64,000 nt of DNA from a virus: the IMG/VR virus record IMGVR_UViG_3300045988_112739; one strand, given 5' to 3'. Numbering within the stretch: the stretch's first letter is position 1; each line of letters opens with the position of its first letter. Positions 2,545 to 54,553 of this stretch are shown here, piece by piece. The notes under the pieces were generated by a model. The model saw nothing but the letters and a program-made list of their open reading frames with translations, searched no databases and had not been told where the DNA came from. The position numbers and the translations under genes were made by a program.

Positions 2545-3996
2545 CTATGATTCAATTAAATCGTAAGTTATCTTCATCGTCTGGGCACTAGTTTTTGTTA
2601 CTGGAGTGGCTAGATTATTAATAGTAGCCAAATAAGTGAAGTCTTTATTAAGATACAGTTTTGGCGCATTATAATAGTTGTAACGAGATATAAAATATGG
2701 GTATATATCTGTATATGTATAAATTTGCATATTATCCATATTCGAAATGTTATCTTGCCAATATCCTAGCCTAATAATATCCCCATCTTCGGTTATACAT
2801 TGGTTGTTCTGTAAGAAATGTGCTTTACGTTTCAAATCATAAAGCCTTTCCCATCTCCTATCGCTATAGCTACTGGTCAAATCAAAATTTTTTATGAAAT
2901 TTCCGTTAAAATCCACAGCAGCCAAGCGATAGGAATTCGTGTCAAGTTGAAACCATGCTATAATAAAATTATTCATCAAACAAAATGGTTTATAACCGTT
3001 ATATTTGTAATGAAAATAACTGTTCCCAGTACCCACATTGGCGAATCTTTTGATATAAAAATCATCAGGAAAACTTTGAACATTAATAAGTATTTTTTTA
3101 TCAAGGGCAACAGCTCCTGTTAAAGCATTAATTCTATTACAATTAAACCAAATGTCGTAGTGTATCTTATCTTCTTGTTCTTGATGACCATATCCAATGC
3201 AACGTATAAAACCATCCGAATCTGTATAACTAGTATAATCTCCTGGGTTTGTAATAGATATGTCCTGTGTCTTATATGGCGAACTTGCAGAACTACCACA
3301 ATCACCCCAATTTAATTCTATCTTTTCTGTGTTAAGTATTTTATAATAAGAAAGTCTAAATGTTGTTGTAGACGGATTTGACAAAGAAACAATGGTATCT
3401 TTAGCTACTATCCCTCTAACTCCACCAAATTCGCTTGTTGGAACATCTCCTGGGATATTGTATAAAAGTCTTGACAGGTTGTTATCAAAATTATAAAAAT
3501 TAGTTATCTTAGGATTATAATTATCTGCTACCGAGTCCCAATATTCATTAAGTCCTATATATCCACCTGTGCGACTTGTTAAACAAACGCAAGCGATTGT
3601 CCCGTTTGCACGGTCTGTAGCAAAATCCCACACCAACCGATATCCGTTGCTAAGAGTTCTACACTCTGTCTCATTCAACGTTCCAGTCCATGGGTTAGTT
3701 CCAGAATATACTCTTCCAGCATGTCCAACTGCGCCCTCACCATTTGCATATATCAAATTTGAGTTTTCTTCCTTTTTATTACTAAAAAGAAGTACTCCAC
3801 CCATGGCGTTAGTAGATATAGGTAAAGTGTTGTCAAGAATCGTTTTTATACTTGTATTACACGACACAAATTCAACCGGAAGATTTAAAAGCTTCTGTAC
3901 GGCACTTGTAACCATATTATTTTCTTCTACTACTTGTTCTAACTCCCCGGTTTCCGCGTTAAATAATTCTATTTTTGTACGCCCTTTGATTTTCAT
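2545..3996 (-). CDS. tail fibre / receptor-binding-like structural protein (function inferred from position only)
   Basis: 483-aa ORF, last large gene of tail module immediately before lysis cassette. Confidence 0.4.
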   Translation of the reverse strand: MKIKGRTKIELFNAETGELEQVVEENNMVTSAVQKLLNLPVEFVSCNTSIKTILDNTLPISTNAMGGVLLFSNKKEENSNLIYANGEGAVGHAGRVYSGTNPWTGTLNETECRTLSNGYRLVWDFATDRANGTIACVCLTSRTGGYIGLNEYWDSVADNYNPKITNFYNFDNNLSRLLYNIPGDVPTSEFGGVRGIVAKDTIVSLSNPSTTTFRLSYYKILNTEKIELNWGDCGSSASSPYKTQDISITNPGDYTSYTDSDGFIRCIGYGHQEQEDKIHYDIWFNCNRINALTGAVALDKKILINVQSFPDDFYIKRFANVGTGNSYFHYKYNGYKPFCLMNNFIIAWFQLDTNSYRLAAVDFNGNFIKNFDLTSSYSDRRWERLYDLKRKAHFLQNNQCITEDGDIIRLGYWQDNISNMDNMQIYTYTDIYPYFISRYNYYNAPKLYLNKDFTYLATINNLATPVTKTSAQTMKITYDLIES

Positions 3997-3997
3997 A

Positions 3998-4684
3998 TCA
4001 TTCTCCCTCCAAATAGTTCATAGTATAAGTAAAAGCCCTATTAAAGCTCTTAATGTAAGTATCATAAGCACTTTCTTTAATATTTCCTAATTCGTTCTTA
4101 TACAAAATATTTACCTCACCAGATACTTGACCCATATCAGCAACCGTAAGTTTAATCCTAGACACATCTGATATTTCTACTTTTACAGGGTTAAACGTAT
4201 ATTTAACTCCGCCAAATGTAGCAGTTATTTCAAAAGCTTTTATATTTTCGTTGGCAGAAATACTTGTGATTGGGTTTGTCATTTCAATATATATAGTGGT
4301 GCTATCAGTGCTATACACACTCCCAGTAACACAAGGCATGTTATCTGTTATCCTTGAGGTTGTTAAAACAAAAGAATTAATATAGTGATAAGCCACATTC
4401 TCTGTAAAAGAAATATCTATTGGGGTTTGAACATCATATATAAGTTCATCTTCGATATCCATGGTTTTTAACGCAAAGGGATTAATTTTAAAATACCCAG
4501 TTTTTTCTCTGAAATGCAAATATCCGTCCCATAAATTAGAGGTGTCAATTTTTCTTGCAATGGTTACAGCCATAGCAATAGCATTATTCCATCTCAAGTC
4601 TGTTGCGGCTGTTTTCCAACGCACAGGAATGCTAACATCTGTGTCACTGACAAATTCTATTTTTTTCTCGTTTACATCAGACAT
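3998..4684 (-). CDS. hypothetical tail-tip/baseplate protein
   Basis: 228-aa ORF tightly coupled (2-nt gap) to downstream gene. Confidence 0.5.
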   Translation of the reverse strand: MSDVNEKKIEFVSDTDVSIPVRWKTAATDLRWNNAIAMAVTIARKIDTSNLWDGYLHFREKTGYFKINPFALKTMDIEDELIYDVQTPIDISFTENVAYHYINSFVLTTSRITDNMPCVTGSVYSTDSTTIYIEMTNPITSISANENIKAFEITATFGGVKYTFNPVKVEISDVSRIKLTVADMGQVSGEVNILYKNELGNIKESAYDTYIKSFNRAFTYTMNYLEGE

Positions 4685-4847
4685 TTTTCCCTACTCCTCT
4701 CGCTGTTATGACTATTGTGACGACAAAATTGCAAAAATCTATATCTGCATCTTCGTTTGCCCACTCAATAGTTGCATAGTTATCCCCTCTTATTGCTTTT
4801 ATAATACGACCTTTTTCATCTTTATAAAATTTCAAATCAGGTATCAT
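4677..4847 (-). CDS. small hypothetical protein (56 aa, below track cutoff)
   Basis: ATG 4847 two nt after stop of upstream gene; MIPDLKFYKDEKGRIIKAIRGDNYATIEWANEDADIDF...; fills an otherwise empty 165-nt gap; overlaps next start by 8 nt. Confidence 0.4.
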   Translation of the reverse strand: MIPDLKFYKDEKGRIIKAIRGDNYATIEWANEDADIDFCNFVVTIVITARGVGKNV

Positions 4848-14583: not shown

Positions 14584-17390
14584 AGCCATTCAACAGACCC
14601 AGAACTCACAATTTCTGTTGTAGTTCCAAGTTCTTTTGCAAGTTCAGAATAACTAGCTAAAGTTTTCCTAACACTAGTATCAGTCTGATTAGTTACCATT
14701 TGTACTTCTGTCATGGTCTTATCGAATTCTTTAGTTTTTTCGATAACGTTTGACAAGCCTTGTCTCATTTCCATGAACAGTCTATTAAATATATTAAAAC
14801 TAAAAGCAACAGCCGCAGTACGTTGGAAACTTGCTTTTAATCTTTCTAACAGTGTCAGTTGCTTACTATTACTCTGATTACTACGAGTTACATTATCTGC
14901 CATTTTAGCATTGGCTTCCGCTACCATATTTGTATAAGTTGAAGTTTTAGCTAATGCATCATTGTCTTTAAGTAGTGCATTATACTGCGCTTGTAACCTA
15001 TCAACAACTGCTTGTTGCTGATTTACAGTAGCATCATTATATGCTCTTGCTTTATACTCTTGAAGTGTAGATTGTGCTTTCTTCAAATTAGTATAAGCAG
15101 TAATCATTTTATTAAGGGTTGCCAAATCACTTTCTTGCTTTGCTTTTATAGTATCGTCTTTTATAGTGGCGTTAGCTTCTGCTACTACGGTTCTTAACTT
15201 TTCATATTGTTCTCTTGTAATACCTAAAGTGGCATTGAAACTCTTCAAAGACATTTGTCCACTTGAAAAATCAATTAAATTTCCAAGTCCACTAGTGCCA
15301 ATTATAGCAGACATCTTATCTTGTACATTTTGATAAGCGGCAGTGTATATACCTTTGTCGCCCTTGCCAGCCTTATTAGTAAGTTTGCCTTGTTCTCTGC
15401 GTAATTCTACATATTCTTGCAAAGATTTAGTTGCTTTAGAATAAACTTCGTTTTCTTGCTTTTGACGTTGAATATCTTTTTCTTTACTATTTGCTACTCT
15501 CTGTAATGTCTGATTATATTCAATATAATTGTTTAGTAATTCTCTTACTCTGTTTGTTAATAACTGAGTGTTTTCAGCACTTCTTAATTCTGTATTATAT
15601 TCAGATAGTTTGGCTTGTGCGATTTTTTGATACTCTGTGGCTTCTTCTATATTTCCTTTTTGCATAGCAGAACGAGATTTTTGCCAAGCCTGATACCTTT
15701 CATTTTCTAATCTTGTTAATTTTGTCACTAAGTTTTGCTGTTGTACGTTTGTATCGCTAGACGTAATTCTATTATATGTATCTGTTGGTATGCGACCATT
15801 ATAAGATTCTATCTGAGTATTTACTTGATTAAGCCTGTTCTGTGTAGTTACAAATTTTTGACTACCCGTTGTCTGTCCAGAAAGTCTACTTTCTAATTTA
15901 GCCCTTTCTGATACTAAATTTGTAAGCTCCTGCTCTAATTGAATTTGTTCTCTTATAACGTTATCTTCGTTTGCTCTTGTTTGAATAGCCCGTTGAATGT
16001 TTTGATTACGTTCCTGTAATTGCCGATTAAGAAAAGAAATACTTTCTGGGTCTTCGGCGTTCCCGTAACCGCTAAAAATAGGGTCTCTACCGCCAGCCAC
16101 CCTACCAGCATTTAATGCGCTTTTCTGAATATTGTTTATTTCAAGCTGATATCTTATTTTGTTTTGTAAAAGATTATCTTCGTTGGCTTCTGCCTCGTAT
16201 AATTTTAATTTCAAATCATACTCTTCTGTGAGTAGTGTTTTATATCTTTCTACCTGGCTGACCTCATCCACATACGTTCTGCTCAAACTAGATGTCCCAC
16301 CACGGCTTAACATCATATCATTAAGTGCTTTAGGGTTTACATTTTGTGGCGTTTTCCCAAATTTATTTGTAATTGTCTGTATATCCTCAGGAGATAAAGT
16401 TATATTTGCACTTTCTCGTCCGCTTATTCTTAATCTAGCGTTTGCTTTTACTAAATTGCCTGTATCGTCAAATACGCCAGTAATCTGCCTAAACAAATTG
16501 CTATAGTTTTTTTTAAATTCGTCAAACCTTTTTCTTGCGTTGATAATTGCGGCATCCGCTTTTTGAGACGCATCTGCTGATATTTTTAATCCCTCTGCTG
16601 TATTTCTATTAAATTCAGACAATTTGGCTCTAGGGTCTTTACTTGCTATAGAGGAATTGTCACTTTCCCCATTATTGCCGCCGCCAGACGGTGAATTTGT
16701 AGATGGATTGCCAGCGTTTTGAGCCGCACCACTTAAAGCATTAGCCGCGTTGCTAACCGCTTGTGCCGCAGTATTTAATGTGGTAGAAGCCCCACTTATA
16801 CTTTGGGAAGTGTTTCCTAAATTAGCATTAGCTGTACCTAAAGCAGAAGCACTATTACCTATATTAGTAGCACTAGTATTTAAACTAGAAGAAGCAGAAT
16901 TAAGGTTCTGAACAGTGGTGTTAAGATTATCAACAGTCTGCATTAATGTTTTATTTAGAGCGTCTGCGTTGGTTGATGTACTCTTCTTATCAGCAGGAGT
17001 TGTTTTTGTCTTTTGAGCTGTAATTACTTTTTCCACTTCTTTAGTAATTGTGGCTAGGTCAGAAGACTTATATCCTGTGCCGCCTATCGTAGCTCTTCCA
17101 GCTTTTGTGTTATAAGTAAACTTTAGACTTTGGTCTGTAATCTGCCTATTGATATCCGTAACGAATTCTGCAAAGTTCTGATAGTCTTTCTTAGATTGTT
17201 CAATCGCCTTTTGTATTGGTTCTCTAAACAGACTTTCTCCTATATTTTTAGTTCCAGAATATTTATTTAAAGCATCAAAAAGCTTCATAATATCATTAGG
17301 AAACTTTGATACTAAATTCTGAAATTGCTGTTCAAATGTACTTGTATCTAATCCTAATTGAACCTTGGCAATTTCTATTTTTTCTGCCAT
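14584..17390 (-). CDS. tape measure protein, exon 1
   Basis: 935 codons of coiled coil plus Ser/Asn/Ala-rich repeats ending …ELAKELGTTTEIVSSGSVEWL, the start of the conserved tape-measure domain. Track tail LIRSL is intron read-through. Confidence 0.8.
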
Positions 17391-39938: not shown

Positions 39939-40022
39939 AGTATAAATTCCCCTTCTAATTACTTATGACGATTTGTCATATGCAAGCCCTCGCTATTGCA
40001 AAGGCTCGTATATAACGCATAA

Positions 40023-40331
40023 TCATTTCTTAAATACAAACGTATTCACTTCATATGCGACTTTCTCTTCCCACTGGTGATACATTTGCTCAAATATATC
40101 ATAAGAATCTTTATATACACTCTCAGCACTTTCACCAGCCGCTAATCTCTCATTGTGCATTTTCTCCAATTGAGTATGCAAGAAATCATAATGACGCAAC
40201 TCATCTTTAGACATTTCATGTAACTTAGTAGCTACAGTCTGGTCTTTACAAGATTTTGCCATTCTAATATAATGTTCTGCCATTTCAATTTCATCAAGCA
40301 TATACTTAGTCATTTTCCGTTCCATAGACAT
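40023..40331 (-). CDS. hypothetical helical protein
   Basis: AGGTGA RBS before ATG 40331. Confidence 0.5.
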   Translation of the reverse strand: MSMERKMTKYMLDEIEMAEHYIRMAKSCKDQTVATKLHEMSKDELRHYDFLHTQLEKMHNERLAAGESAESVYKDSYDIFEQMYHQWEEKVAYEVNTFVFKK

Positions 40332-40340
40332 AACAATCAC

Positions 40341-40586
40341 CTATTTATTAGACTGTGAAGATGTTAATATGTCTATAATTGTTTGCTGACCTTGTTGTAT
40401 TTCTTTCAGTAAATGAACTGTCTCTTGAAGCAATTCGTTGCTTTTATCGTTTTCTTCTATTGCCAATATCTTTTTATTAATTTCAAAATTCTTTAGATTT
40501 ATATTTAATATTGCAACACTAAGACTAGTGGTAGTAAGGTCTGTCAATGTATTCAGATTAGAACTATTGATTATCATTGTTACCAC
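40341..40586 (-). CDS. hypothetical coiled-coil protein
   Basis: 81-aa ORF. Confidence 0.45.
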   Translation of the reverse strand: MVTMIINSSNLNTLTDLTTTSLSVAILNINLKNFEINKKILAIEENDKSNELLQETVHLLKEIQQGQQTIIDILTSSQSNK

Positions 40587-40863
40587 CCAACAATCTGATT
40601 ATATCTTCATTTTGCTGTATAATAGTCTTATTCTGTTCTATACTAATATTTAGTGCTTCCAAAGTTTTATTTAATATTTCATTTGTTTGTTTATTTAATT
40701 GTTCTTCTATATGATTTGTCTGCAATTCTATATCGTGATTTAGTTGAGCATAAGTACCAGCTTTTGTAGACTGATATATATTATAAAACTGACTAACATT
40801 AGCTAATCCACTAACTAAATCAGAATTTAAGAAAGACATCAAATCAGAAGTTTGGATTACCAT
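40564..40863 (-). CDS. hypothetical coiled-coil protein
   Basis: 99-aa ORF. Confidence 0.45.
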   Translation of the reverse strand: MVIQTSDLMSFLNSDLVSGLANVSQFYNIYQSTKAGTYAQLNHDIELQTNHIEEQLNKQTNEILNKTLEALNISIEQNKTIIQQNEDIIRLLGGNNDNQ

Positions 40864-40869
40864 AAGGCA

Positions 40870-41478
40870 TCACTCGCCATCTATAAGTTTCCAAATCTGC
40901 GATATTATACTAGAACAACAATCTGTTACCATAATCACTGTTCCAATCATACCACACGCAATCATATTGGCGTAAACAGAATATCCTAAAACAATCAAGC
41001 CTACCGCTATTGCAGTTAATATTGCAAGTGACACTATATATTTAGCGCGAAATCGTTTATCTCTAATTTTACCCTGACTAATACTATATTCACTAGGTTT
41101 AGGACATAAAGGAATAATTCCCACAGATGGAATTAATGCAATCCCTAAGAGCAACCATGAATTATAACTAAAGGTCAAACCTAGTGCAACTAAAAGCAAA
41201 TATAATATATTAGAAGTAAAATAACATTGTTTAAAAGTTTTGCAGTGATATCCTCCTGCAAACGAACGCAATATCATATAAGTAACAACACAAATAACAT
41301 AAGGTAAGAAAATTCCTAAAAGCAAAGATATAATAACACCAGTGCCATTAGTTAAAAGTTGAGAAAGTATAAGAAATATAGAATATTCATATACTTCTAT
41401 ATCTTCTTCATTTTCCCCTCTACCTATTTTCTTTGCAATATCTTTAGACTTGTTTTCTATATAAGTAAAAATGTCCAT
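40870..41478 (-). CDS. agrB: AgrB-like membrane peptidase (autoinducing-peptide maturation)
   Basis: About 200 aa, multi-pass; LRSFAGGYHCKTFKQCYFTS has the AgrB R-x-x-A-G-G-x-H…C signature with His and Cys 7 residues apart. Start taken at second ATG (41478), which has AGGA 9 nt upstream. Confidence 0.7.
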   Translation of the reverse strand: MDIFTYIENKSKDIAKKIGRGENEEDIEVYEYSIFLILSQLLTNGTGVIISLLLGIFLPYVICVVTYMILRSFAGGYHCKTFKQCYFTSNILYLLLVALGLTFSYNSWLLLGIALIPSVGIIPLCPKPSEYSISQGKIRDKRFRAKYIVSLAILTAIAVGLIVLGYSVYANMIACGMIGTVIMVTDCCSSIISQIWKLIDGE

Positions 41479-41502
41479 TAAAAACATTCCTAAAATTAAA
41501 GT

Positions 41503-41531
41503 AAAAAGAGGGGTATTAAGCCCCTCTTTTT
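41503..41531 (-). terminator. intrinsic terminator/attenuator between agrD-like and agrB-like genes
   Basis: AAAAAGAGGGG…CCCCTCTTTTT; U tract on the minus strand; 25 nt upstream of the agrB-like start. Confidence 0.6.
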
Positions 41532-41557
41532 AGTCTATAATGTCTATAATGAAAGGT

Positions 41558-41677
41558 TTACTGCTTTTCAGCAATAGCCTTTGCTACCTTACTCGGTACT
41601 TTGGGCTGATAGGCATTCATTGAAGTAAACGCCTGTTCAACAGAATTTACAGCCATCTTTTTGAGAAACTTTTTCAT
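41558..41677 (-). CDS. agrD: AgrD-like autoinducing-peptide precursor (39 aa, below track cutoff)
   Basis: AGGAAG RBS; MKKFLKKMAVNSVEQAFTSMNAYQPKVPSKVAKAIAEKQ. It has an amphipathic leader, the candidate ring SMNAY and a Y-Q-P-x-x-P tail, as in clostridial AgrD (e.g. …CLWFTHQPEEPKSL). Ser replaces the usual Cys. Confidence 0.55.
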   Translation of the reverse strand: MKKFLKKMAVNSVEQAFTSMNAYQPKVPSKVAKAIAEKQ

Positions 41678-42134
41678 ATAAGCACTTCCTTTTGTATAAT
41701 ATAAATATTAAAAGTAATTGAATTACTCTTAATATCAGATTAAAAATGAATTCGTAAATCTTATCAGTAAAACAATTTGTGAAAGTTTCATCAACAAACA
41801 TATTGTTTATCCACGACAATATAGCCACTGTTGCAAATAAAAATGCCGTAGACAGCCAACAGATTACAAATTTATATTTATACCTTTTAAGAGTAAATAT
41901 ATACAATATAATTGGCATAATTATTATTGCTACAAATATATTATATGTTAACTGCCACACAGGACTTTCAAGGAGCATATTAGGGTATTGAACTACAAAA
42001 TTCAAAGCACCTAATATGTAGGAATCAAGTATGATTCTAGTCTTTGTCTTTGTTCCACTACATACATTGCAGAACAATAAAATAATAAACGCCTCTAAAG
42101 GATTATATAAAAGTAAACTTGGTAAAAATGACAT
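41637..42134 (-). CDS. multi-pass membrane protein
   Basis: 165 aa, about 5 hydrophobic segments; 3' end overlaps the agrD-like start by 41 nt. Confidence 0.5.
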   Translation of the reverse strand: MSFLPSLLLYNPLEAFIILLFCNVCSGTKTKTRIILDSYILGALNFVVQYPNMLLESPVWQLTYNIFVAIIIMPIILYIFTLKRYKYKFVICWLSTAFLFATVAILSWINNMFVDETFTNCFTDKIYEFIFNLILRVIQLLLIFILYKRKCLYEKVSQKDGCKFC

Positions 42135-42466
42135 TAAAAATTTCCTCTATTACTTATCCAACACAACAGGTCATACCAACAATTATCTCCTGCAAAAAAC
42201 TTGTCAAGTTTGTGATAGCCATTGTTGTTGATATTGCTTTCTAAAAGTTCGATACATACATTATCTTTAGATATATATGCAATATATGATTTTGTATTGT
42301 ATGTTATATACAAAGCATCTTCTCCATTGTGTTTACCAACAGAAAATAACTTAATATCAAAAATAGTTTCACACATAGAAGTCACATTTTCTCTGCACAA
42401 GCCGTTTTCAAGAGAATATCTGGCAATCCATTTTAAACTACGATTAGATAAGCTACTTCTTCTCAA
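42134..42466 (-). CDS. hypothetical protein
   Basis: 110-aa ORF, start/stop coupled to neighbours. Confidence 0.5.
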   Translation of the reverse strand: MRRSSLSNRSLKWIARYSLENGLCRENVTSMCETIFDIKLFSVGKHNGEDALYITYNTKSYIAYISKDNVCIELLESNINNNGYHKLDKFFAGDNCWYDLLCWISNRGNF

Positions 42467-42827
42467 TGTTCATCTCACCGAGTTTCTTATACAATTTCAT
42501 AATCATATTTTGAGTTGTCATATGGCTACGGCTATTATTATCCTCAATATCACAAATATCATTATAGATATTCCTAATAAACCGCTCCAACTTTTCTACT
42601 TTTCCTAACAACAATATCAAAATTGCTGTTAATACTAATATTCCTATTAACACTAGCGTAAGCAATAATTTATCGTTAGATGTTAGGATTAATTCTTCAT
42701 TAGGTAAATAGCAACTAGCATAATATATTATACTAGCCAACACAAATGTGATTACCGCTCCGATTCCAACTGAGCGTAAGATTTTTATAATGTGCATGAT
42801 TAATTTCCTCATATTAGGATTTAACAT
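42453..42827 (-). CDS. membrane protein
   Basis: 124 aa with two hydrophobic segments; first gene after promoter 42847-42884. Confidence 0.5.
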   Translation of the reverse strand: MLNPNMRKLIMHIIKILRSVGIGAVITFVLASIIYYASCYLPNEELILTSNDKLLLTLVLIGILVLTAILILLLGKVEKLERFIRNIYNDICDIEDNNSRSHMTTQNMIMKLYKKLGEMNIEKK

Positions 42828-42846
42828 ATTCTTATATCCTAATCTT

Positions 42847-42884
42847 ATTATATCATAAACTCAAAGCTTTGTCAAGTCATTTTT
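42847..42884 (-). promoter_or_regulatory. sigma-A type promoter (conserved phage early promoter family)
   Basis: Minus strand AAAATGACTTGACAA-N-TGATATAAT: TTGACA (42875-42870), 17-nt spacer, TATAAT (42852-42847). Confidence 0.7.
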
Positions 42885-43074
42885 GGATATTATTTTTATT
42901 TCTCGTCCATTGCTCTAAGAACACCGCTAAATCAGGAGTTCTTTCAAATATCCAACAGGTCTTATTTTCTCTAACATGAACAAAACTTGTTTTGACAGAA
43001 AAGCCATTAAGCTCTAAATACTCTTTTAAATTAGGTGAATAACAAGAAAAATATTCTTCCTTAGAATATCTCAT
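42877..43074 (-). CDS. hypothetical protein
   Basis: 65-aa ORF. Confidence 0.45.
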   Translation of the reverse strand: MRYSKEEYFSCYSPNLKEYLELNGFSVKTSFVHVRENKTCWIFERTPDLAVFLEQWTRNKNNIQK

Positions 43075-43224
43075 ATAGTATCACCTACCATACTAGTTCT
43101 TACATAAATTGCTTTGTACACCAAAGTCATCAATCAAAATCACCCTTTCAAAAATTTATAAATATTATAGATACCATTCAGCGTTCTTCACAGAACGTTC
43201 AAAGATGTCTATAATGTGATAATA

Positions 43225-43701
43225 TTACTTTTCTTTAACCCATTTTGTTTTACCAAATATGTTTTTCTTTTCAACATAATGTTCGGCATTAGGGTCATAA
43301 ACTTCCATTTCATTTTTACTTAAAACTTCAACTTCTGGATTATCTATTTCATTTTCTGAAAGAGAACTATTAACATCTTTAGTAGTCAAAGTCTGTAAGA
43401 TTTTATCTAGTTTGGCATTTAATTCGGTATAGCAAGTGTCTAATTCTGTTTTTAGTTCCGAAATTTTAATTTCTTGCGCAGAAGAAGCTTGCTGCAACTG
43501 AATTTCAACTGCTTTTTGATTCTCAGCACTCGTTTGATAATCTTTATAGAAAGCACTTATAAATTTGGCGAGATTATCAAAGTTATCCCCTATATGTGCA
43601 GTTGTACAATGGGGAGATTTACTGCAAATAAATTTATAATTACAAACGGCACATCTGTTGCCATTAGCACCGCAATTATTCTGTACACTATTTAATCCCA
43701 T
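43225..43701 (-). CDS. Cys-rich N-terminus / coiled-coil protein
   Basis: …CGANGNRCAVCNYKFICSKSPHCTTAH… then coiled coil. Confidence 0.5.
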   Translation of the reverse strand: MGLNSVQNNCGANGNRCAVCNYKFICSKSPHCTTAHIGDNFDNLAKFISAFYKDYQTSAENQKAVEIQLQQASSAQEIKISELKTELDTCYTELNAKLDKILQTLTTKDVNSSLSENEIDNPEVEVLSKNEMEVYDPNAEHYVEKKNIFGKTKWVKEK

Positions 43702-43703
43702 AA

Positions 43704-44126
43704 TCAGCCACCGCTAGTCTCAACAGCAACCTCTATAGGGTCTTTGGACGTTGATGGGTCTACCCATTCATTCATATATCTATCAGCAGGACACATACAA
43801 CTAAGAATCCTAATTGTATTATATACGCTGTCAAACTGACAAGCTATACATCTGCGATTAGAAGCATACCCCTGTAATTCAACAGCAGTTACAGGCTTGT
43901 TGAGTCTGTCAATTAAGGAATAAATATTAGTACTATTATTGTCAGTAAGTATAAGTCTAGCATTATACTCTGAAACCGCAAAAGGATTATTTATAATCAT
44001 ATTAAAATTATAAAACCGTCTAGGATATCTTCTATTTTCGATACCATCTGCGGGAGTTGCTGTCATTAATACATCATCGGATGTGGTAAGGGCAGAACTA
44101 GTTACTACTACAGTAGGATAAGGCAT
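43704..44126 (-). CDS. hypothetical protein
   Basis: 140-aa ORF coupled to downstream gene. Confidence 0.5.
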   Translation of the reverse strand: MPYPTVVVTSSALTTSDDVLMTATPADGIENRRYPRRFYNFNMIINNPFAVSEYNARLILTDNNSTNIYSLIDRLNKPVTAVELQGYASNRRCIACQFDSVYNTIRILSCMCPADRYMNEWVDPSTSKDPIEVAVETSGG

Positions 44127-44165
44127 AACAATTACCTCTTGTTAAAGTTATATCCTATAATGTAA

Positions 44166-44459
44166 TTATTTCAACGATTCTTTCTGTTCTTTTACTTTCT
44201 TTCTATATTCTTCGATTTTGTCATTTACCATCATTTTTGCGATATCAGCGGCTTCGTCTACATTTCCATCTGTACCAAACAGCCATGTTAATGCAGTTTC
44301 TATTCCAATATCTGCATATCCCAATATTTTGTTTTCAAACATACTAAGAATAGGTGTAACATTCATACCTATCTTATTTCCAATAGTGGGAAGTTGATTA
44401 TAAATTTTCATAACTTCTCGTTCAAGGATTTGCCTTGCAATTTCTTTATCACTTATCAT
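44166..44459 (-). CDS. hypothetical protein
   Basis: 97-aa ORF. Confidence 0.5.
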   Translation of the reverse strand: MISDKEIARQILEREVMKIYNQLPTIGNKIGMNVTPILSMFENKILGYADIGIETALTWLFGTDGNVDEAADIAKMMVNDKIEEYRKKVKEQKESLK

Positions 44460-44955
44460 TATTATTTACACCCTCTGCCTTACTAAGCTCTAGTAATCGT
44501 TTCTGTATCACATCATCTTGCATTAATTGTTGTATTTTAGCAAGATTTTGAGTCTCTTCTTCTGAAAACTTGTCTCTTATATTTCTAAAAGTAGCAAGTA
44601 GTCTTTCAAAAGACATAGAACCCTCTTTTGTTTGTAATACTTGTGGGCGTATAATTTGCTCTATGGCGTGTTGTATTTGCTTATCACACTCAGCCATAGC
44701 CGCCTTAAATTCGCTATCATTTAATATTTTATTTTGTATTGTAGGAGAACACCTAGAAAATTCGTTTTCAAATTCTACATAGGGGTCAGATACTATTTGC
44801 TGCATTTGCTGTTGCACTTGTTGTAATTGACTAGGGTCGTATCCCGTTCTTTTTAATTGCTGAACATATTCCCATTCTTGTGGAGAAACTTGTGGCAATG
44901 GAGTCTTGGGGACGTTATACCCAGAGATTAACGGATTTTGAGGACTTAAAGCCAT
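44449..44955 (-). CDS. Gln-rich hypothetical protein
   Basis: 168 aa, …PSQLQQVQQQMQQ…; GGAAGTG RBS. Confidence 0.5.
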   Translation of the reverse strand: MALSPQNPLISGYNVPKTPLPQVSPQEWEYVQQLKRTGYDPSQLQQVQQQMQQIVSDPYVEFENEFSRCSPTIQNKILNDSEFKAAMAECDKQIQHAIEQIIRPQVLQTKEGSMSFERLLATFRNIRDKFSEEETQNLAKIQQLMQDDVIQKRLLELSKAEGVNNNDK

Positions 44956-45005
44956 TATATCACTTCCACGATTAAAGAAGTGTATAATGTCTATAATGTA
45001 AATAA

Positions 45006-45524
45006 TTAGAAGTTGTTATATCCACAACCGCAGCCACAGCCGTCATTGTAAGTGTTGCAACCACAATAACCATTTACAGTGTAAGGATATACCTGTCTAC
45101 TACCAAGAAGCAGAGTAGAACCAGTGTAAGGGTCTGCAAGCTGACTAGGAGCAAGGAACTTGCTTGCCTTAACAAAGTCGCAAGTAGCCGCCTTAATCTT
45201 ATAATCAGTAAGGACATCGTTAGTGTTGAATCTAGTATCAACACAACCGAATTGCTGGTCGATAAGTTTGCCCTCATAGTAAGAACGCATCTGCTCAATC
45301 TCAAAGTTCTTAGCAATAGAAGTCTCGTCAATAGCTACTCTCTGTTCAAGAGCACAAATTCTATCAGAAACCCCCTGTGCATAGTTGAAGAACTCTTTCA
45401 TGTCAGAAATAGTATTGTTGTAATACTCTTTCTCAGTAACGTTAGCCGCATTAGTATTTCCACCAAGCAGACCATTACCATTAAGAGCACCACCAGCGAG
45501 AGCACCTAAAGCTGTACCAATAAT
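45006..45524 (-). CDS. Gly-rich/Cys-rich protein, exon 2
   Basis: Frame open upstream of track ATG to 45524: IIGTALGALAGGALNGNGLLGGNTNAANVTEKEYYNNTISDMKEFF…; C-terminus GYCGCNTYNDGCGCGCGYNNF. Confidence 0.65.
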   Translation of the reverse strand: MIGTALGALAGGALNGNGLLGGNTNAANVTEKEYYNNTISDMKEFFNYAQGVSDRICALEQRVAIDETSIAKNFEIEQMRSYYEGKLIDQQFGCVDTRFNTNDVLTDYKIKAATCDFVKASKFLAPSQLADPYTGSTLLLGSRQVYPYTVNGYCGCNTYNDGCGCGCGYNNF

Positions 45525-45777
45525 CGTTTATTCTTATATTACTATAAGCACTGACTATATCTTACCTAGAATACTAGGAAAATCTGTTTCGAACGTTGTG
45601 TCAATAAACGTCCTACTCTCCCGATGCGGAGATAGTCGATACATCGCCCATTACTAAAAGTAATGTATGACACGGTATTATCCTATAAGTTGGTACACTT
45701 AATATAGGACTTCACCGTTAGCATCTTAAAGATACCCCATTGACGAAATGGATAAGATTTAACAGGCATTATTACAT
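45525..45777 (-). ncRNA. group I intron in Gly/Cys-rich protein gene
   Basis: P1 is CUUGGU| with GCCUG. Core elements: GCTAACGGTGAAGTCC, GATAATACCGTG, ATCGACTATC (P7), AAGATATAGTC (J8/7-P7'). Ends AATATAAGAATAAACG. Confidence 0.8.
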
Positions 45778-45861
45778 ACCAAGAGTTAATCCTGCGTTAG
45801 CCTTACCGTTGGAAGCGGCATTGAACTCGCCCTCTGTTCCTGTTGCTGTTTTTACTAACAT
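45778..45861 (-). CDS. Gly-rich/Cys-rich protein, exon 1 (28 codons)
   Basis: GGTGA RBS, ATG 45861; MLVKTATGTEGEFNAASNGKANAGLTLG. Joins in frame to IIGTALGALAGG…. Confidence 0.6.
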
Positions 45862-45919
45862 ACTAATCACCATATAATTATATGATTATATAATGTTATT
45901 ATGTGGATAAATATATAAT

Positions 45920-45947
45920 AAAGGCTCACCCCAAGGAATGAGCCTTT
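45920..45947 (-). terminator. stem-loop after Hsp20-like gene
   Basis: AAAGGCTCA…TGAGCCTTT; A/T-rich downstream on minus strand. Confidence 0.45.
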
Positions 45948-45958
45948 AATTATTTTGA

Positions 45959-46339
45959 TTAAATCCTTGTAACCTTGATAGTGTTTTCTACGGGCTTCTT
46001 TACCGTAATATAAATATAAGTCATGCCATTGAGAGACTTATATTCAACCTTTTCTATGTTGTTAATTACGTCCTTTGCAACAGAACACTCATAATCAATA
46101 GAATAGGTTTCACCATCGCACTTTGTTTCACCCTTGACCTTGATACTGTTACTTGTTATAGTAATGTGTACATCGTCGGGTGCAACACCTACACTTCTGC
46201 AAGCACACTTGTAACCCTTGTCAGTCTTGTGCCAAGACATAGGAGACATATCCTTAGTCTTTGCAGAATTGTATCTTACAATAGGCTTGTCAAAAATTCT
46301 CATAAAATCGTCATCAAAAAAATTCATTAAACTTTCCAT
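45959..46339 (-). CDS. small heat-shock protein (Hsp20/alpha-crystallin-like)
   Basis: 126 aa; …VAPDDVHITITSNSIKVKGETK…EKVEYKSLNGMTYIYITVKK follows the alpha-crystallin domain pattern. Confidence 0.55.
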   Translation of the reverse strand: MESLMNFFDDDFMRIFDKPIVRYNSAKTKDMSPMSWHKTDKGYKCACRSVGVAPDDVHITITSNSIKVKGETKCDGETYSIDYECSVAKDVINNIEKVEYKSLNGMTYIYITVKKPVENTIKVTRI

Positions 46340-46458
46340 AAAAACACCTCAAAAAAATAAAAAATATACATTGAATCAATATGACCCAAAGGGTGTCAAT
46401 TTTGCTTTTGTTTAGGGATAAGTACAAAATTGTCACATACTAAAACCATAACCCTATA

Positions 46459-46534
46459 TGGAGCTGATATCAGGAATCGAACCCGAAACATTCTGATTAC
46501 AAAACAGATACTCTGCCTATTGAGTTATATCAGC
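46459..46534 (-). tRNA. tRNA-Thr (anticodon UGU), CCA encoded
   Basis: Hand-folded cloverleaf. Acceptor GCTGATA/TATCAGC, D stem ACTC/GAGT, anticodon arm TCTGT-TTTGTAA-TCAGA (31-39 U-U mismatch), T arm TCGGG-TTCGATT-CCTGA. Confidence 0.85.
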
Positions 46535-46804
46535 ATCGCATAACGTCCGCAGAACAGTGTTGTACACCACCTAGTTTTTTACAGAGATAATAGTTGGGTA
46601 ATTACTCCCACCATACAAACGTAAACATAACTAATTATGCTATTCGGTGGACAACGATGGATTTGCACCATCACCAAAAGGTCTACTACAAGGTCGCCCA
46701 TATTGTCCTAGAAATCTAGGACAAACTATCTATAACGCTGTAACGTAGCGTAGCGATGAGTCCAAGCACTTTAAGCTTCAACGAGAGGCTTGCTTGGCTC
46801 TCTC

Positions 46805-46892
46805 TGGTGAGAGGAGTAGGAGTCGAACCTACGGTGTTTCTAACGTACTTGATTTACAGTCAAGCGTCTTCACCAACTAGACATATCCTCCC
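46805..46892 (-). tRNA. tRNA-Tyr (anticodon GUA), long variable arm, CCA encoded
   Basis: Acceptor GGGAGGA/TCCTCTC, anticodon arm CTTGA-CTGTAAA-TCAAG, variable arm TACGTTAGAAACACCGTA, T arm GTAGG-TTCGACT-CCTAC. Confidence 0.85.
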
Positions 46893-52565: not shown

Positions 52566-52864
52566 CATTTATACCCCAATTTTCATTGTACTTTAACGCT
52601 GATTTAACAGCGGGATTTGACTATCTCTTTATCTGCTGTTGCAGATATGTGGCACTACGGAATAATGAATTTCACATTAAACCTCTTGAACTCTCGTTCG
52701 TTTAGTCGATACACCTTTCCTTTGTTAAGGACTTGGCACGATATCATCATGTATAATAAATTATATTTAGACTTTCATCGTTAGCCAGCTTGAAGCTGAC
52801 ACCCTAGATTTCTAGGTTCACCACATTCTTAACCAATATTACTATTGGCTCGGACTGACATTTT
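52566..52864 (-). ncRNA. group I intron X1 in RNA polymerase gene
   Basis: P1 is CGGAU| with GUCCG. P2 is CCAATAGTAATATTGG. Core elements: 24-nt block (52799-52822), TATCGACTAAAC (P7), AGAGATAGTC, P9 hairpin CGCTGTTAAATCAGCG. Ends GGGGTATAAATG. Confidence 0.9.
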
Positions 52865-54553
52865 ATCCGCATCGGAGGCGTTTATCGCTTCCATTCCCCA
52901 TATGTTAAGTATATTACCACTATAAATATACTTAAACCACTCTTTACACTCGTCTGAATGATTTATAAAACATTTTTGATTTTCTGAAAAGTCTACTAAA
53001 GGAGACCGCATAAGTGCAACTACATTCGTTCCTTTATCAACCCATCTTTTATTCCAACATTCTCTTTTTCCAAGCAAACCATGAACTTCCATACCTAATG
53101 CGTGTTCGCATAAAGCATAAAGGTCTGGGATAGAAAAGTCATAGCTTCCCTCTACCAAAAGCTTACCAATTTTAGTTTGTCTTACTTTCTTTTCTAGCAT
53201 AAGATTAATTTTATTTCTTATATAGCTGTCGTTAAGTATTGCATCATTATACATTAGTGCTTTTGCAATAGAAGAATCTTGATTTTTTTCAATCGAAGTG
53301 TATTCATCGTCTTCGTCATGGCTTCCTAAAAGAAACAACATGGAATAAAGTTTATCTCCAGTCATTATCTTTTTTATCCAATCTAATGAAAAATCTGCTA
53401 ACTGTTTTATACTTTCCTCTGTAAATTTATTGGACTGGACATATTGATAATTCATAGGAGTGTAAATGTTGTTTTGCTTTTTAGTTACTCTTGCTACACC
53501 AAAGATATGATTGAACTTTTGGTGATAGTACATATACTGTTGCCAATTCTCATATTTCTTTGCCATTTTAAATTGACTTTTAGTAAGTATGACATCAATA
53601 TCATCAATGTTATACTCCACACCCCAAAGGTCTGTAATGACTTCTTTGTGTGCAACTTCTTTTGCAAATTTATGAAAATCAAATATTGATACAAGTCCTT
53701 TTATCCAGCAAGACCTAAGGATAAACGAAGCAGGAAGATAATCTAATTTCAAATCTTCTTGCCAAAGTTTAGCCATTTCGGGACTAATCATTCCTGCACC
53801 ATCAAAGGCGTTGATTTCGAAATCCATTATTTTATCTTGAACATCTTTTTCACCTTTAGGATTATCATAAATCCATTTTATATTCTGGTCTTTTAATGTG
53901 TATTCAAAATCATTAACTACACATATTCTGGGTTTTCTAACCTGTCTTGTCGCACTAGTATAGAGTGCGAAGTATGCGCTGAACTTGGCGAGGTTAATTT
54001 TACCTATACTCTGTCTTGTCAAACCACACATCATTGTTCGTTCTAGCAAATTATGAATACTAGAATCGACAAATATCGCAGAGTTTCTTCTCAACTGTCC
54101 TGCTCCTGCGCATAAACGGATATAGTGTGTAGTTACAGCTTTACCTCCTAAATCTACCGTAACTGTAAATCCATTTTTGCAAAGGTCTTTGTAATCTTTT
54201 TTAGTGGTGTCTACTTTTACTGATACTATTTCTGGAACAAACAGTAAATTTTCGATTTCCTTTTGTATCTCTAAAATTTCATTTGAATGTTCGTTACTTT
54301 CATTTAATTGCTTTAAGTGATTTCTTTTAGAATACAAATTTTGAATGTATTCTTTTTCGAATGGTCTTTCTTGAATTTGTCGTATAAATCTAAGAAGTTG
54401 ATTGTCTCCTAAAGCAACCATCATACCCAGCTCTTTTGCAGAACGCAAGGTAAATCTCATAGATTTATCATTGCTCATGATATATGATGTGTTTATCTTT
54501 AGGACATTAAACAAATCCATTTTAGCCAATTTATCAGTCCTTTCAATAGACAT
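52865..54553 (-). CDS. DPBB RNA polymerase (YonO/RdRP-like), exon 1 (563 codons)
   Basis: Ends …VVALMRSPLVDFSENQ…WGMEAINASDAD. Track tail KMSVRANSNIG is intron read-through. Compare eukaryotic RDR …NPCLHPGD…SGSDLDGDLYFV… (recollection). Confidence 0.7.

Follow-up and report, generated by a model that had tools for sequence, protein, structure and literature searches.

We investigated a 64,000-nt window of viral DNA, the IMG/VR record IMGVR_UViG_3300045988_112739, which is only a part of a source contig of about 96 kb. Its minus strand carries a set of five genes in the order orf124, orf110, X, agrD, agrB, with a tandem sequence motif and then a hairpin between the last two. The last gene, agrB (40870-41478), encodes a membrane cysteine endopeptidase/cyclase of the AgrB family with 202 amino acids (aa), agrD (41558-41677) encodes an AgrD-like precursor of 39 aa, and X (41637-42134) encodes a 165-aa protein with five transmembrane (TM) segments; the 3' end of X shares 41 nt with agrD, which is read in a different frame. 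An initial annotation of the window had described agrB and agrD and had given their order, D then B, as we find it; however, it overlooked X and the fact that the genes form a cassette that recurs throughout a phage lineage. In the following, L numbers denote the loci that were compared and P numbers members of the peptide family.

The open reading frame (ORF) at 40870-41478 is almost certainly an AgrB. The catalytic signature from which it had first been recognized, FAGGYH-CKTFKQ-C (FAGGYHCKTFKQC), is present, and the Pfam profile PF04647, which had been proposed as a check, matches residues 15-186 over model positions 2-180 of 185 with a score of 103.1 bits against a cutoff of 23. Residues R71, G75, G76, H78, C85, and P126 are invariant in an alignment of 15 AgrB sequences drawn from the window, nine proteins from a homologue search, L011, L017, the Clostridioides difficile phage phiCDHM1, and three annotated bacterial AgrBs. 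Residues R71, G75/G76, H78, and C85 are the counterparts of R70, G75, H77, and C84 in S. aureus AgrB, which are needed for peptidase activity (PMC10196373). The enzyme looks intact, and the conserved residues predict that it cleaves and cyclizes its substrate. The start at MDIF is common to all relatives, and AGGAA precedes the ATG by 8 nt. Identity to the window protein is 57% for the AgrB of L001, 35% for that of L011, and 21% for that of phiCDHM1; the IMG gene call for the window protein already carries the name "accessory gene regulator B".

The stop codon of agrD lies 79 nt upstream of the agrB start, and an AgrD-type ORF adjoins agrB in the same way in 11 other loci. The ORF at 41558-41677 (minus strand) translates exactly to MKKFLKKMAVNSVEQAFTSMNAYQPKVPSKVAKAIAEKQ, the sequence reported in the initial annotation, and the good ribosome-binding site noted there is present as AAGGAAG 7 nt before the ATG; a motif resembling a Shine-Dalgarno (SD) sequence is found approximately 7-12 nt upstream of the peptide ATG in 10 of 11 loci. 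The small ORF is kept in more than 35 related sequences. Between the window copy and five orthologous copies (L001, L009, L010, L013, and L015), 64-98% of the synonymous but only 16-19% of the non-synonymous sites differ, and the ratio of non-synonymous to synonymous divergence (dN/dS) across all pairs is 0.05-0.29 where it can be estimated, the synonymous sites being near saturation. Judged by this pattern of substitution, purifying selection acts on the 39-codon ORF, with a dN/dS of about 0.1 overall, and the ORF is a genuine coding sequence.

That this coding sequence specifies an AgrD-family precursor is very probable. Comparison with an AgrD model, another of the checks that had been suggested, gave a divided answer: with the NCBIfam model TIGR04223 the window peptide scores 16.2 bits (E = 0.009), which is under the cutoff of 19, whereas five orthologues score 22.3, 21.3, 27.4, 25.7, and 30.8 bits and exceed it. 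Those that are 77-79% identical to the window peptide span 21.3-27.4 bits, and the highest score belongs to the L011 peptide; five other related peptides gave no score with this model. In nr and UniRef, the relative P0103 already bears the name "AgrD [Siphoviridae sp. ctyvQ1]". The same peptide adjoins AgrB in L001, L009, L010, L013, L015, and L016, and a 43-aa version does so in L011 (phage MT835481). We took reference AgrDs for comparison from annotated plasmids and from phiCDHM1. The window peptide has a charged C-terminal tail with the x-[E/Q]-P-x-x-P recognition motif, and this tail, YQPKVPSKVAKAIAEKQ, matches YQPKAP in M. pectinilyticus, HQPKVP in P. sordellii, and NQPKMP in phiCDHM1, all of which are encoded beside annotated AgrBs. 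A word-indexed search with the peptide profile returned phage-type peptides with Thr only and no AgrDs of the Cys type.

The leader departs from the reference AgrDs. It has 17 residues in the window and 17-20 across the phage peptides, compared to about 24 in a standard AgrD, and its maximal hydrophobicity over 11 residues is about 0.1 and for the window peptide 0.11, whereas four reference AgrDs reach 0.58-0.95. Short and polar, the phage leaders have no hydrophobic core of the kind found in ordinary AgrDs. Of the AgrD-like layout described for the window peptide, the charged tail and the QPxxP motif are thus borne out, whereas the amphipathic leader is so with respect to its helical moment (0.50; 0.36-0.70 in the references) but not with respect to its length and hydrophobicity.

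The residue that would close the ring can be read from alignments of 25 related peptides and of 13 more, 38 in all. The aligned peptides follow one pattern: a leader, A-x-T, four hypervariable residues, and [Y/G/N/L]-[Q/E]-P-K-[V/L/M]. Column 18 holds Thr in 36 of the 38 (23 of the 25 and all of the 13), the exceptions being P0032 and P0070 with Ser. The residues following it are SMNA, ALNA, AMNS, AMNQ, FMNQ, IMNQ, NFAH, TLNH, SLNF, LFTH, VRLV, and others. Cys occupies the same column in two bacterial AgrDs, from M. pectinilyticus (C-GWKI-YQPKAP) and from P. sordellii (C-MGYI-HQPKVP). A standard AgrD has a Cys (or Ser) five residues before the cleavage site; in the window peptide this place is taken by Thr18, and we therefore class the peptide as an AgrD variant rather than a standard AgrD. 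Homology predicts a ring of T18-S-M-N-A22, with the AgrB cut before Tyr23, and it is somewhat probable from the alignment that Thr18 closes this ring to form a lactone.

The initial annotation had placed the ring one residue further on, with Ser19 as the nucleophile, a Ser-lactone ring S-M-N-A-Y, and a chemistry unlike that of phiCDHM1. Ser19 does occur in the window copy of the peptide, and Ser-lactone autoinducing peptides (AIPs) are known from S. pseudintermedius and from E. faecalis (PMC12312760). However, the relatives have A, F, I, N, T, or yet another residue at position 19, and a ring that ends at Tyr23 breaks the [Y/H/N]-Q-P-K-x-P frame common to the AgrDs encoded beside annotated AgrBs. 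It also conflicts with the rule from which it was derived, namely a five-residue ring followed by Y-Q-P, and the contrast in chemistry fails in that the AgrD of phiCDHM1 too lacks Cys and has Ser at the Thr18 column. We regard the Ser19 ring as highly improbable, and return to Thr18 as the likelier nucleophile.

A close published parallel is the agr3 locus of phiCDHM1 (Hargreaves et al. 2014; PMC3901668). In both phages AgrB and AgrD are phage-borne and AgrA is absent. The phiCDHM1 AgrD, MNKILYKFMKFFGGVAIAIAFISANTTSVWYINQPKMPKSLKKKL, contains no Cys, and its Ser28 aligns with the Thr18 column, so that a hydroxyl group occupies the ring column in either case and the phiCDHM1 peptide is itself predicted to be of the lactone type. 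Its recognition motif, NQPKMPKSL, is nearly identical to YQPKVPSKV in the window and YQPKMPKSL in L011; a P-X-X-P motif was noted by the original authors (PMC3901668), and residues 35-38 agree with it. The differences lie elsewhere: phiCDHM1 is a 54-kb myovirus with the order agrC-agrB-agrD, a histidine kinase, a location in the lysogeny/lysis region, and an AgrD leader that is long and hydrophobic, whereas the window has X-agrD-hairpin-agrB, no kinase, a short polar leader, and a five-TM partner, all in an SPbeta-like phage with a YonO-type polymerase. The contrast with phiCDHM1 drawn in the initial annotation therefore stands for gene order and the absence of AgrC, but not for peptide chemistry. 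In the phiCDHM1 record (L018; HG531805, 26176-26310, minus strand), T26 and T27 precede Ser28, and the GenBank coding sequence starts 8 codons downstream of the start of the 45-aa ORF in the paper.

Canonical staphylococcal and clostridial agrBD loci share with the window the enzyme family and its catalytic residues, as well as a precursor in three parts, in which a leader is followed by a ring region of five residues, four of them variable, and by a charged tail that carries a conserved proline motif. In the window, however, Cys gives way to Thr, agrB follows agrD with a hairpin in between, agrCA is absent, and the usual position of agrB is occupied by the unrelated protein X (hhalign, 0.7%). 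A further likeness is that the gene before agrD may run in frame into agrD, as on a P. sordellii plasmid. On this plasmid (NZ_CP080292, L019; 2429-3154) AgrB and AgrD form a single ORF of 241 aa (...QGGSK-MKKYLL...), which is annotated as 'AgrD family cyclic lactone autoinducer peptide' and is flanked by an AgrC/LytTR pair on one side and a LanM lanthipeptide synthetase gene on the other. With the Ser-lactone AIPs, that of S. pseudintermedius and GBAP, which E. faecalis makes from FsrD, the window peptide would share oxygen in place of sulphur, and the family members P0032 and P0070 have Ser; however, those lactones are formed by Ser and each has been demonstrated chemically, whereas the Thr lactone is a prediction.

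Protein X has no match in Pfam, NCBIfam, or PHROG. An exhaustive search with hidden Markov models places it in a family of 82 cluster representatives, all 39-206 aa long and none of kinase length; ten members that we looked up all come from metagenome assemblies. The AlphaFold2 (AF2) model is a five-helix bundle with a predicted local distance difference test (pLDDT) score of 92.8. It has no fold counterpart in the PDB, and its single viral match in BFVD is an uncharacterised member of the same family. Two loops, GTKTKTR and KRYKYK, are positively charged and two others, ESP and VDETFTNCFTD, are acidic; from these charges we infer that the N-terminus faces outward and the C-terminus inward. 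Given this topology, the most conserved residues (N11, E14, Q49, N65, E128, and N132) would be situated in the outer halves of the helices. The idea that X is a divergent AgrB was rejected (hhalign, 0.7%). Support was also lacking for X as an AgrC sensor module: hhalign against four AgrC-like proteins gave 0.1%, a limited comparison in view of the shallow AgrC alignment, and no match in the X family is longer than 206 aa.

In the window, L011, L024, and P0019, X and the peptide are encoded in different frames, and their ORFs share 29-41 nt. In L001, L009, L010, L013, L015, L016, L017, L025, and L026 the two form one in-frame ORF of 183-206 aa; such fusions make up about 20 of the 82 family representatives and seven of the ten near relatives. 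Every fused protein retains Met at the point where the peptide begins, and in L017 a perfect GGAGG is located within the fused ORF before the peptide ATG. Because the Met and an SD-like motif persist even where the ORFs are fused, we conclude that agrD has a start site of its own and constitutes a nested or overlapping gene. For a fused relative, AF2 gives a confident model of the X part and a flexible appended part (pLDDT 50-60), in which a helix (153-168), a coil (169-181), and a second helix (182-191) follow one another, a layout in line with membership in the AgrD family.

The fusions could also be taken to mean that the AgrD-like part is a cytoplasmic tail of X, which AgrB cleaves without cyclizing and by which AgrB matures or regulates X, the product being linear or retained by X. 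Besides the in-frame ORFs themselves, the weak nucleophilicity of Thr fits this interpretation, as does the C-terminus of X, which by the positive-inside rule would be cytoplasmic and thus on the side where R70, G75, and H77 of AgrB lie near the active site (PMC10196373). However, the peptide can only be made independently where it is out of frame with X, which is the case in the window, L011, L024, P0019, and the 43-aa group P0102-P0113; the invariant Met and the SD-like motif within fused ORFs point in the same direction; and an invariant hydroxyl residue followed by four hypervariable ones is the signature of an AIP ring and unlike a tail. We consider a tail of X quite unlikely, and a separately initiated AgrD precursor remains our preferred reading of the ORF.

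The absence of a hydrophobic core from the leader fits the idea that X supplies the contact with the membrane. In S. aureus, the CPBP-type membrane protease MroQ removes the AgrD leader and is required in addition to AgrB for AIP maturation (PMC12312760). X resembles MroQ in being a polytopic membrane protein and, by analogy, is a candidate for a second membrane step or an export step in AIP maturation; unlike MroQ, it has no CPBP/Abi match in Pfam and no conserved His, and it comprises five helices in about 160 aa. Any specific role for X is doubtful at present.

A G+C-rich hairpin separates agrD from agrB (41502-41532, minus strand; 12 pairs, five of them G-C). It was detected by a terminator scan of 40000-46500 that returned only three terminator-like sites, and it corresponds to the intrinsic terminator reported here by the initial annotation, whose tandem motif is likewise present as an exact match. 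The position of the hairpin is kept, with differing stem sequences, in nine loci (window, L001, L003, L009, L010, L011, L013, L015, and L017). The tandem motif consists of two copies of the 9-mer ATTATAGAC (ATTATAGACATTATAGAC) in non-coding DNA at 41533-41550 (minus strand). It is found between the agrD stop codon and the hairpin in eight related loci, including L011 with its AgrB of 35% identity, and it is kept there although the flanking non-coding DNA is not. Tandem copies of the form ATTATAGA[AC] also occur in intergenic DNA just past stop codons at 43198-43215 and 44980-45006 (minus strand). In L017 the tandem 9-mer follows the endolysin gene instead (16857-16874). Neither the hairpin nor the repeat matched a family in Rfam. 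The hairpin could be an attenuating terminator that keeps the precursor in excess over the enzyme, a design familiar from other ribosomal-peptide operons; alternatively, it could be a processing or stabilizing element. The tandem 9-mer may act as an operator, or a phage polymerase may use it as a promoter. Upstream of orf124, a sigma-70-type promoter-like site at 42847-42875 (minus strand; TTGACA, 17 nt, TG-TATAAT) is recognized by its match to the consensus; it has the TG of an extended -10 element and is the sole 12-of-12 match in 40000-46500.

The first two genes of the cassette are orf124 (42453-42827, minus strand), whose product has two TM segments and a C-terminal helical region, and orf110 (42134-42466, minus strand), whose soluble product carries a G-[DE]-[SN]-C-W motif. 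For orf110 we found no family match in Pfam, NCBIfam, or PHROG, and for orf124 only sub-threshold matches. Homologues of both are located just upstream of X in L009, L011, L013, L015, L017, and L024, and the two genes may belong to the same functional unit as X, agrD, and agrB. X, with or without D, is followed by AgrB in the window and in L009, L010, L011, L013, L014, L015, L016, L017, L025, and L026; in L001 D is followed by AgrB and the contig ends before X, which brings the total to twelve contigs of the lineage. In all of these except the two shortest, L010 and L014, genes for YonJ, YonG, HU, or a YonO-type protein are found near the cassette, and the slot between the HU/HSP20-like and the YonJ/YonG genes is constant also in phages with AgrBs that share only 26-35% identity with that of the window. 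On the evidence of this synteny, the cassette is a lineage-wide feature of SPbeta-like gut phages and not a one-off. Two small ORFs of 99 and 81 aa (40341-40863, minus strand) are found 3' of agrB, and a pair in this place (98 and 73, 91 and 74, or 86 and 79 aa) is present in most related loci; L025 lacks the pair and has YonJ directly after agrB.

The cassette has also been lost. A block of 4.4 kb with about ten ORFs (41542-45940), among them orf124, orf110, X, and agrD, is absent from six contigs of about 95% identity (L002-L007). Their blastn alignments to the window join position 45941 directly to 41541, so that the terminator past the HSP20-like gene abuts the hairpin before agrB; hairpin and agrB are retained, the latter as an orphan. 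L003-L005 additionally lack window positions 40293-40778. In L024, a related viral contig of 98 kb (IMGVR_UViG_3300045988_131220), a TnpB/IS605 OrfB-like ORF of 370 aa (3647-4759) directly follows the agrD-like ORF at the place where agrB would be expected. The cassette is accessory and evolutionarily mobile, as the loss of the block and this insertion show.

One could go further and regard the locus as the decaying remnant of a captured agr system, with the deletions in L002-L007, the transposase insertion after agrD in L024, and the offset between the frames of X and D, which sets the window apart from most near relatives, as signs of lost function. However, the peptide is under strong purifying selection, the catalytic residues of AgrB are intact, the layout with separate frames recurs with intact ORFs in the divergent and independent lineages L011, L024, and P0019, and synteny is kept across phages with AgrBs 26-35% identical to the window's. 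We consider such a remnant very unlikely.

The DNA of the window is that of a phage of the SPbeta type, in agreement with the phage context of the initial annotation. PHROG matches in the window include portal, terminase, tape measure, and exonuclease proteins, and precomputed Pfam calls on identical or related contigs include YonJ, YonG, YonD, PhoH, ClpP, HU, and a YonO-type polymerase with an RNA-dependent RNA polymerase (RdRP) fold. The latter corresponds to a 574-aa protein (52829-54553, minus strand) with the eukaryotic-type RdRP-fold domain PF05183; it resembles the YonO RNA polymerase of SPbeta and marks the phage as SPbeta-like. Its counterpart in L017 has 926 aa. The relatives of the window all originate from metagenome assemblies, from pig or human gut and other sources, and the phage that carries the cassette is an SPbeta-like member of a pig or human gut community. 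Among GenBank phages we found no close or near-identical DNA match to the window. Searches of 185,579 species-representative genomes with X patterns gave no match and no prophage of the window type, and with AgrB patterns they gave only two distant bacterial AgrBs. The phage also carries genes for tRNA-Thr(TGT) and tRNA-Tyr(GTA) at 46459-46534 and 46805-46892 (minus strand); between them, at 46761-46797, is a sub-threshold match to the abiF RNA (28.3 bits, compared to a gathering score of 37).

We do not find a cognate receptor near the cassette, as the initial annotation had stated for AgrC and AgrA. Phmmer searches with four AgrC and three LytTR queries gave no match with E <= 1 among 921 stop-to-stop ORFs of at least 50 aa from the window and eight related phage loci, and the precomputed Pfam calls for 47-64 kb of the window and for the related loci contain no AgrC/AgrA or HATPase. 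The arbitrium system (AimR-AimP-AimX) of the Bacillus SPbeta-group phages is likewise a peptide module in an SPbeta-like phage, and the logic would be comparable if the cassette peptide is a phage signal; however, the two are not related in sequence or mechanism. AimP is a linear secreted hexapeptide that is sensed by an intracellular receptor of the tetratricopeptide repeat (TPR) type. No AimR-like gene turned up and no TPR family is present in the Pfam calls for 47-64 kb, although no dedicated arbitrium search was made.

The absence of receptor genes nearby is also what one would expect if the cyclic peptide were a weapon or quorum quencher, which blocks the agr receptors of competitors or acts as a bacteriocin, with X as the immunity or export protein. 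By analogy, SPbeta itself carries an operon for the bacteriocin sublancin, a ribosomally synthesized and post-translationally modified peptide, together with a membrane immunity protein. The accessory nature of the cassette, its loss in close relatives, and a strong stand-alone candidate for a sigma-70-like promoter agree with such a role. However, there is no ABC transporter and no double-glycine leader of the bacteriocin type, and the variation of the ring resembles that of agr specificity groups. We consider a weapon unlikely. Once released, the peptide would most likely serve as a diffusible signal or as a molecule of interference.

We therefore interpret the locus as a cassette by which a phage directs the biosynthesis of an AgrD-type cyclic peptide, with a probability of about 0.62; the macrolactone mechanism through Thr18 is part of this interpretation and is deduced from homology. 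AgrD would be translated from its own SD motif and ATG, also where it is in frame with X. Because the short polar leader lacks a hydrophobic core, X would bring the peptide to the membrane, either as a fusion or as a partner. AgrB would cut between Ala22 and Tyr23, releasing YQPKVPSKVAKAIAEKQ and forming an acyl-enzyme on Cys85, which the hydroxyl group of Thr18 would attack to yield c(T-S-M-N-A), a macrolactone of five residues that keeps a short tail at its N-terminus. The hairpin past the precursor gene would reduce read-through into agrB and leave the precursor in excess, comparable to other ribosomal-peptide operons. The receptor would be located outside the window, as a host AgrC/AgrA pair or elsewhere in the phage genome, or it might possibly be formed by X and the two upstream cassette proteins.

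Several observations weigh against this interpretation. The window's own peptide scores under the TIGR04223 cutoff (16.2 compared to 19). A secondary alcohol is a poorer nucleophile, so that the product could be linear. A Thr-lactone AIP has not been described, and a literature search on threonine AgrD or AIP gave nothing relevant; a 2025 primer lists thiolactones and, as the only lactones, those formed by Ser in S. pseudintermedius and E. faecalis (PMC12312760). The terminator-like hairpin is found just before agrB with no obvious promoter after it, which leaves the expression of agrB unexplained. With no AgrC/AgrA in the window or the related loci, a role in signalling is hypothetical. Six close relatives keep agrB but have lost X and agrD; the cassette is therefore dispensable, and agrB may have another role. 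Lastly, the expression of the cassette and the processing of the peptide are predicted from the genes.

A more far-reaching version holds that a widespread lineage of SPbeta-like gut phages makes a Thr-lactone AIP with X as the partner for delivery, leader removal, or export, or as the receptor; that the peptide serves as the phage's own signal, comparable in function to arbitrium, or hijacks the agr system of the host; and that the ring variants TSMNA, TAMNQ, TNFAH, TTLNH, and others represent specificity groups. In this full form the proposal is rather unlikely.

That phages can carry agr genes is already known from phiCDHM1, and relatives of both proteins already bear the corresponding database labels; phage agr genes are also mentioned in reviews (PMC11945551). 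What appears to be new is that a large phage family has a conserved Thr, in some cases Ser, where the ring closes; that the leader is truncated and polar; that the gene for a novel five-TM partner overlaps agrD or is fused to it; and that the order D-hairpin-B belongs to a conserved five-gene cassette of SPbeta-like gut phages. The cassette shows that phage agr genes are more than an isolated capture: in an entire lineage of large gut phages they are conserved and syntenic. To our knowledge, the function of phage agr genes has never been worked out since phiCDHM1.

The delivery of AgrD to AgrB and the export of the peptide are unresolved questions for agr systems (PMC12312760, PMC10196373), and for this step X offers a concrete candidate that can be put to the test, being a small protein that co-evolves with AgrD and in some cases forms a fusion with it. 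The diversity of the ring among related phages provides a natural set of putative specificity groups, which could be used to distinguish agr-type communication between gut phages from interference with host signalling. The replacement of Cys by a conserved Thr or Ser predicts lactone AIPs, among them the undescribed Thr-lactone, which, if true, would be a ring chemistry new to AgrB enzymes.

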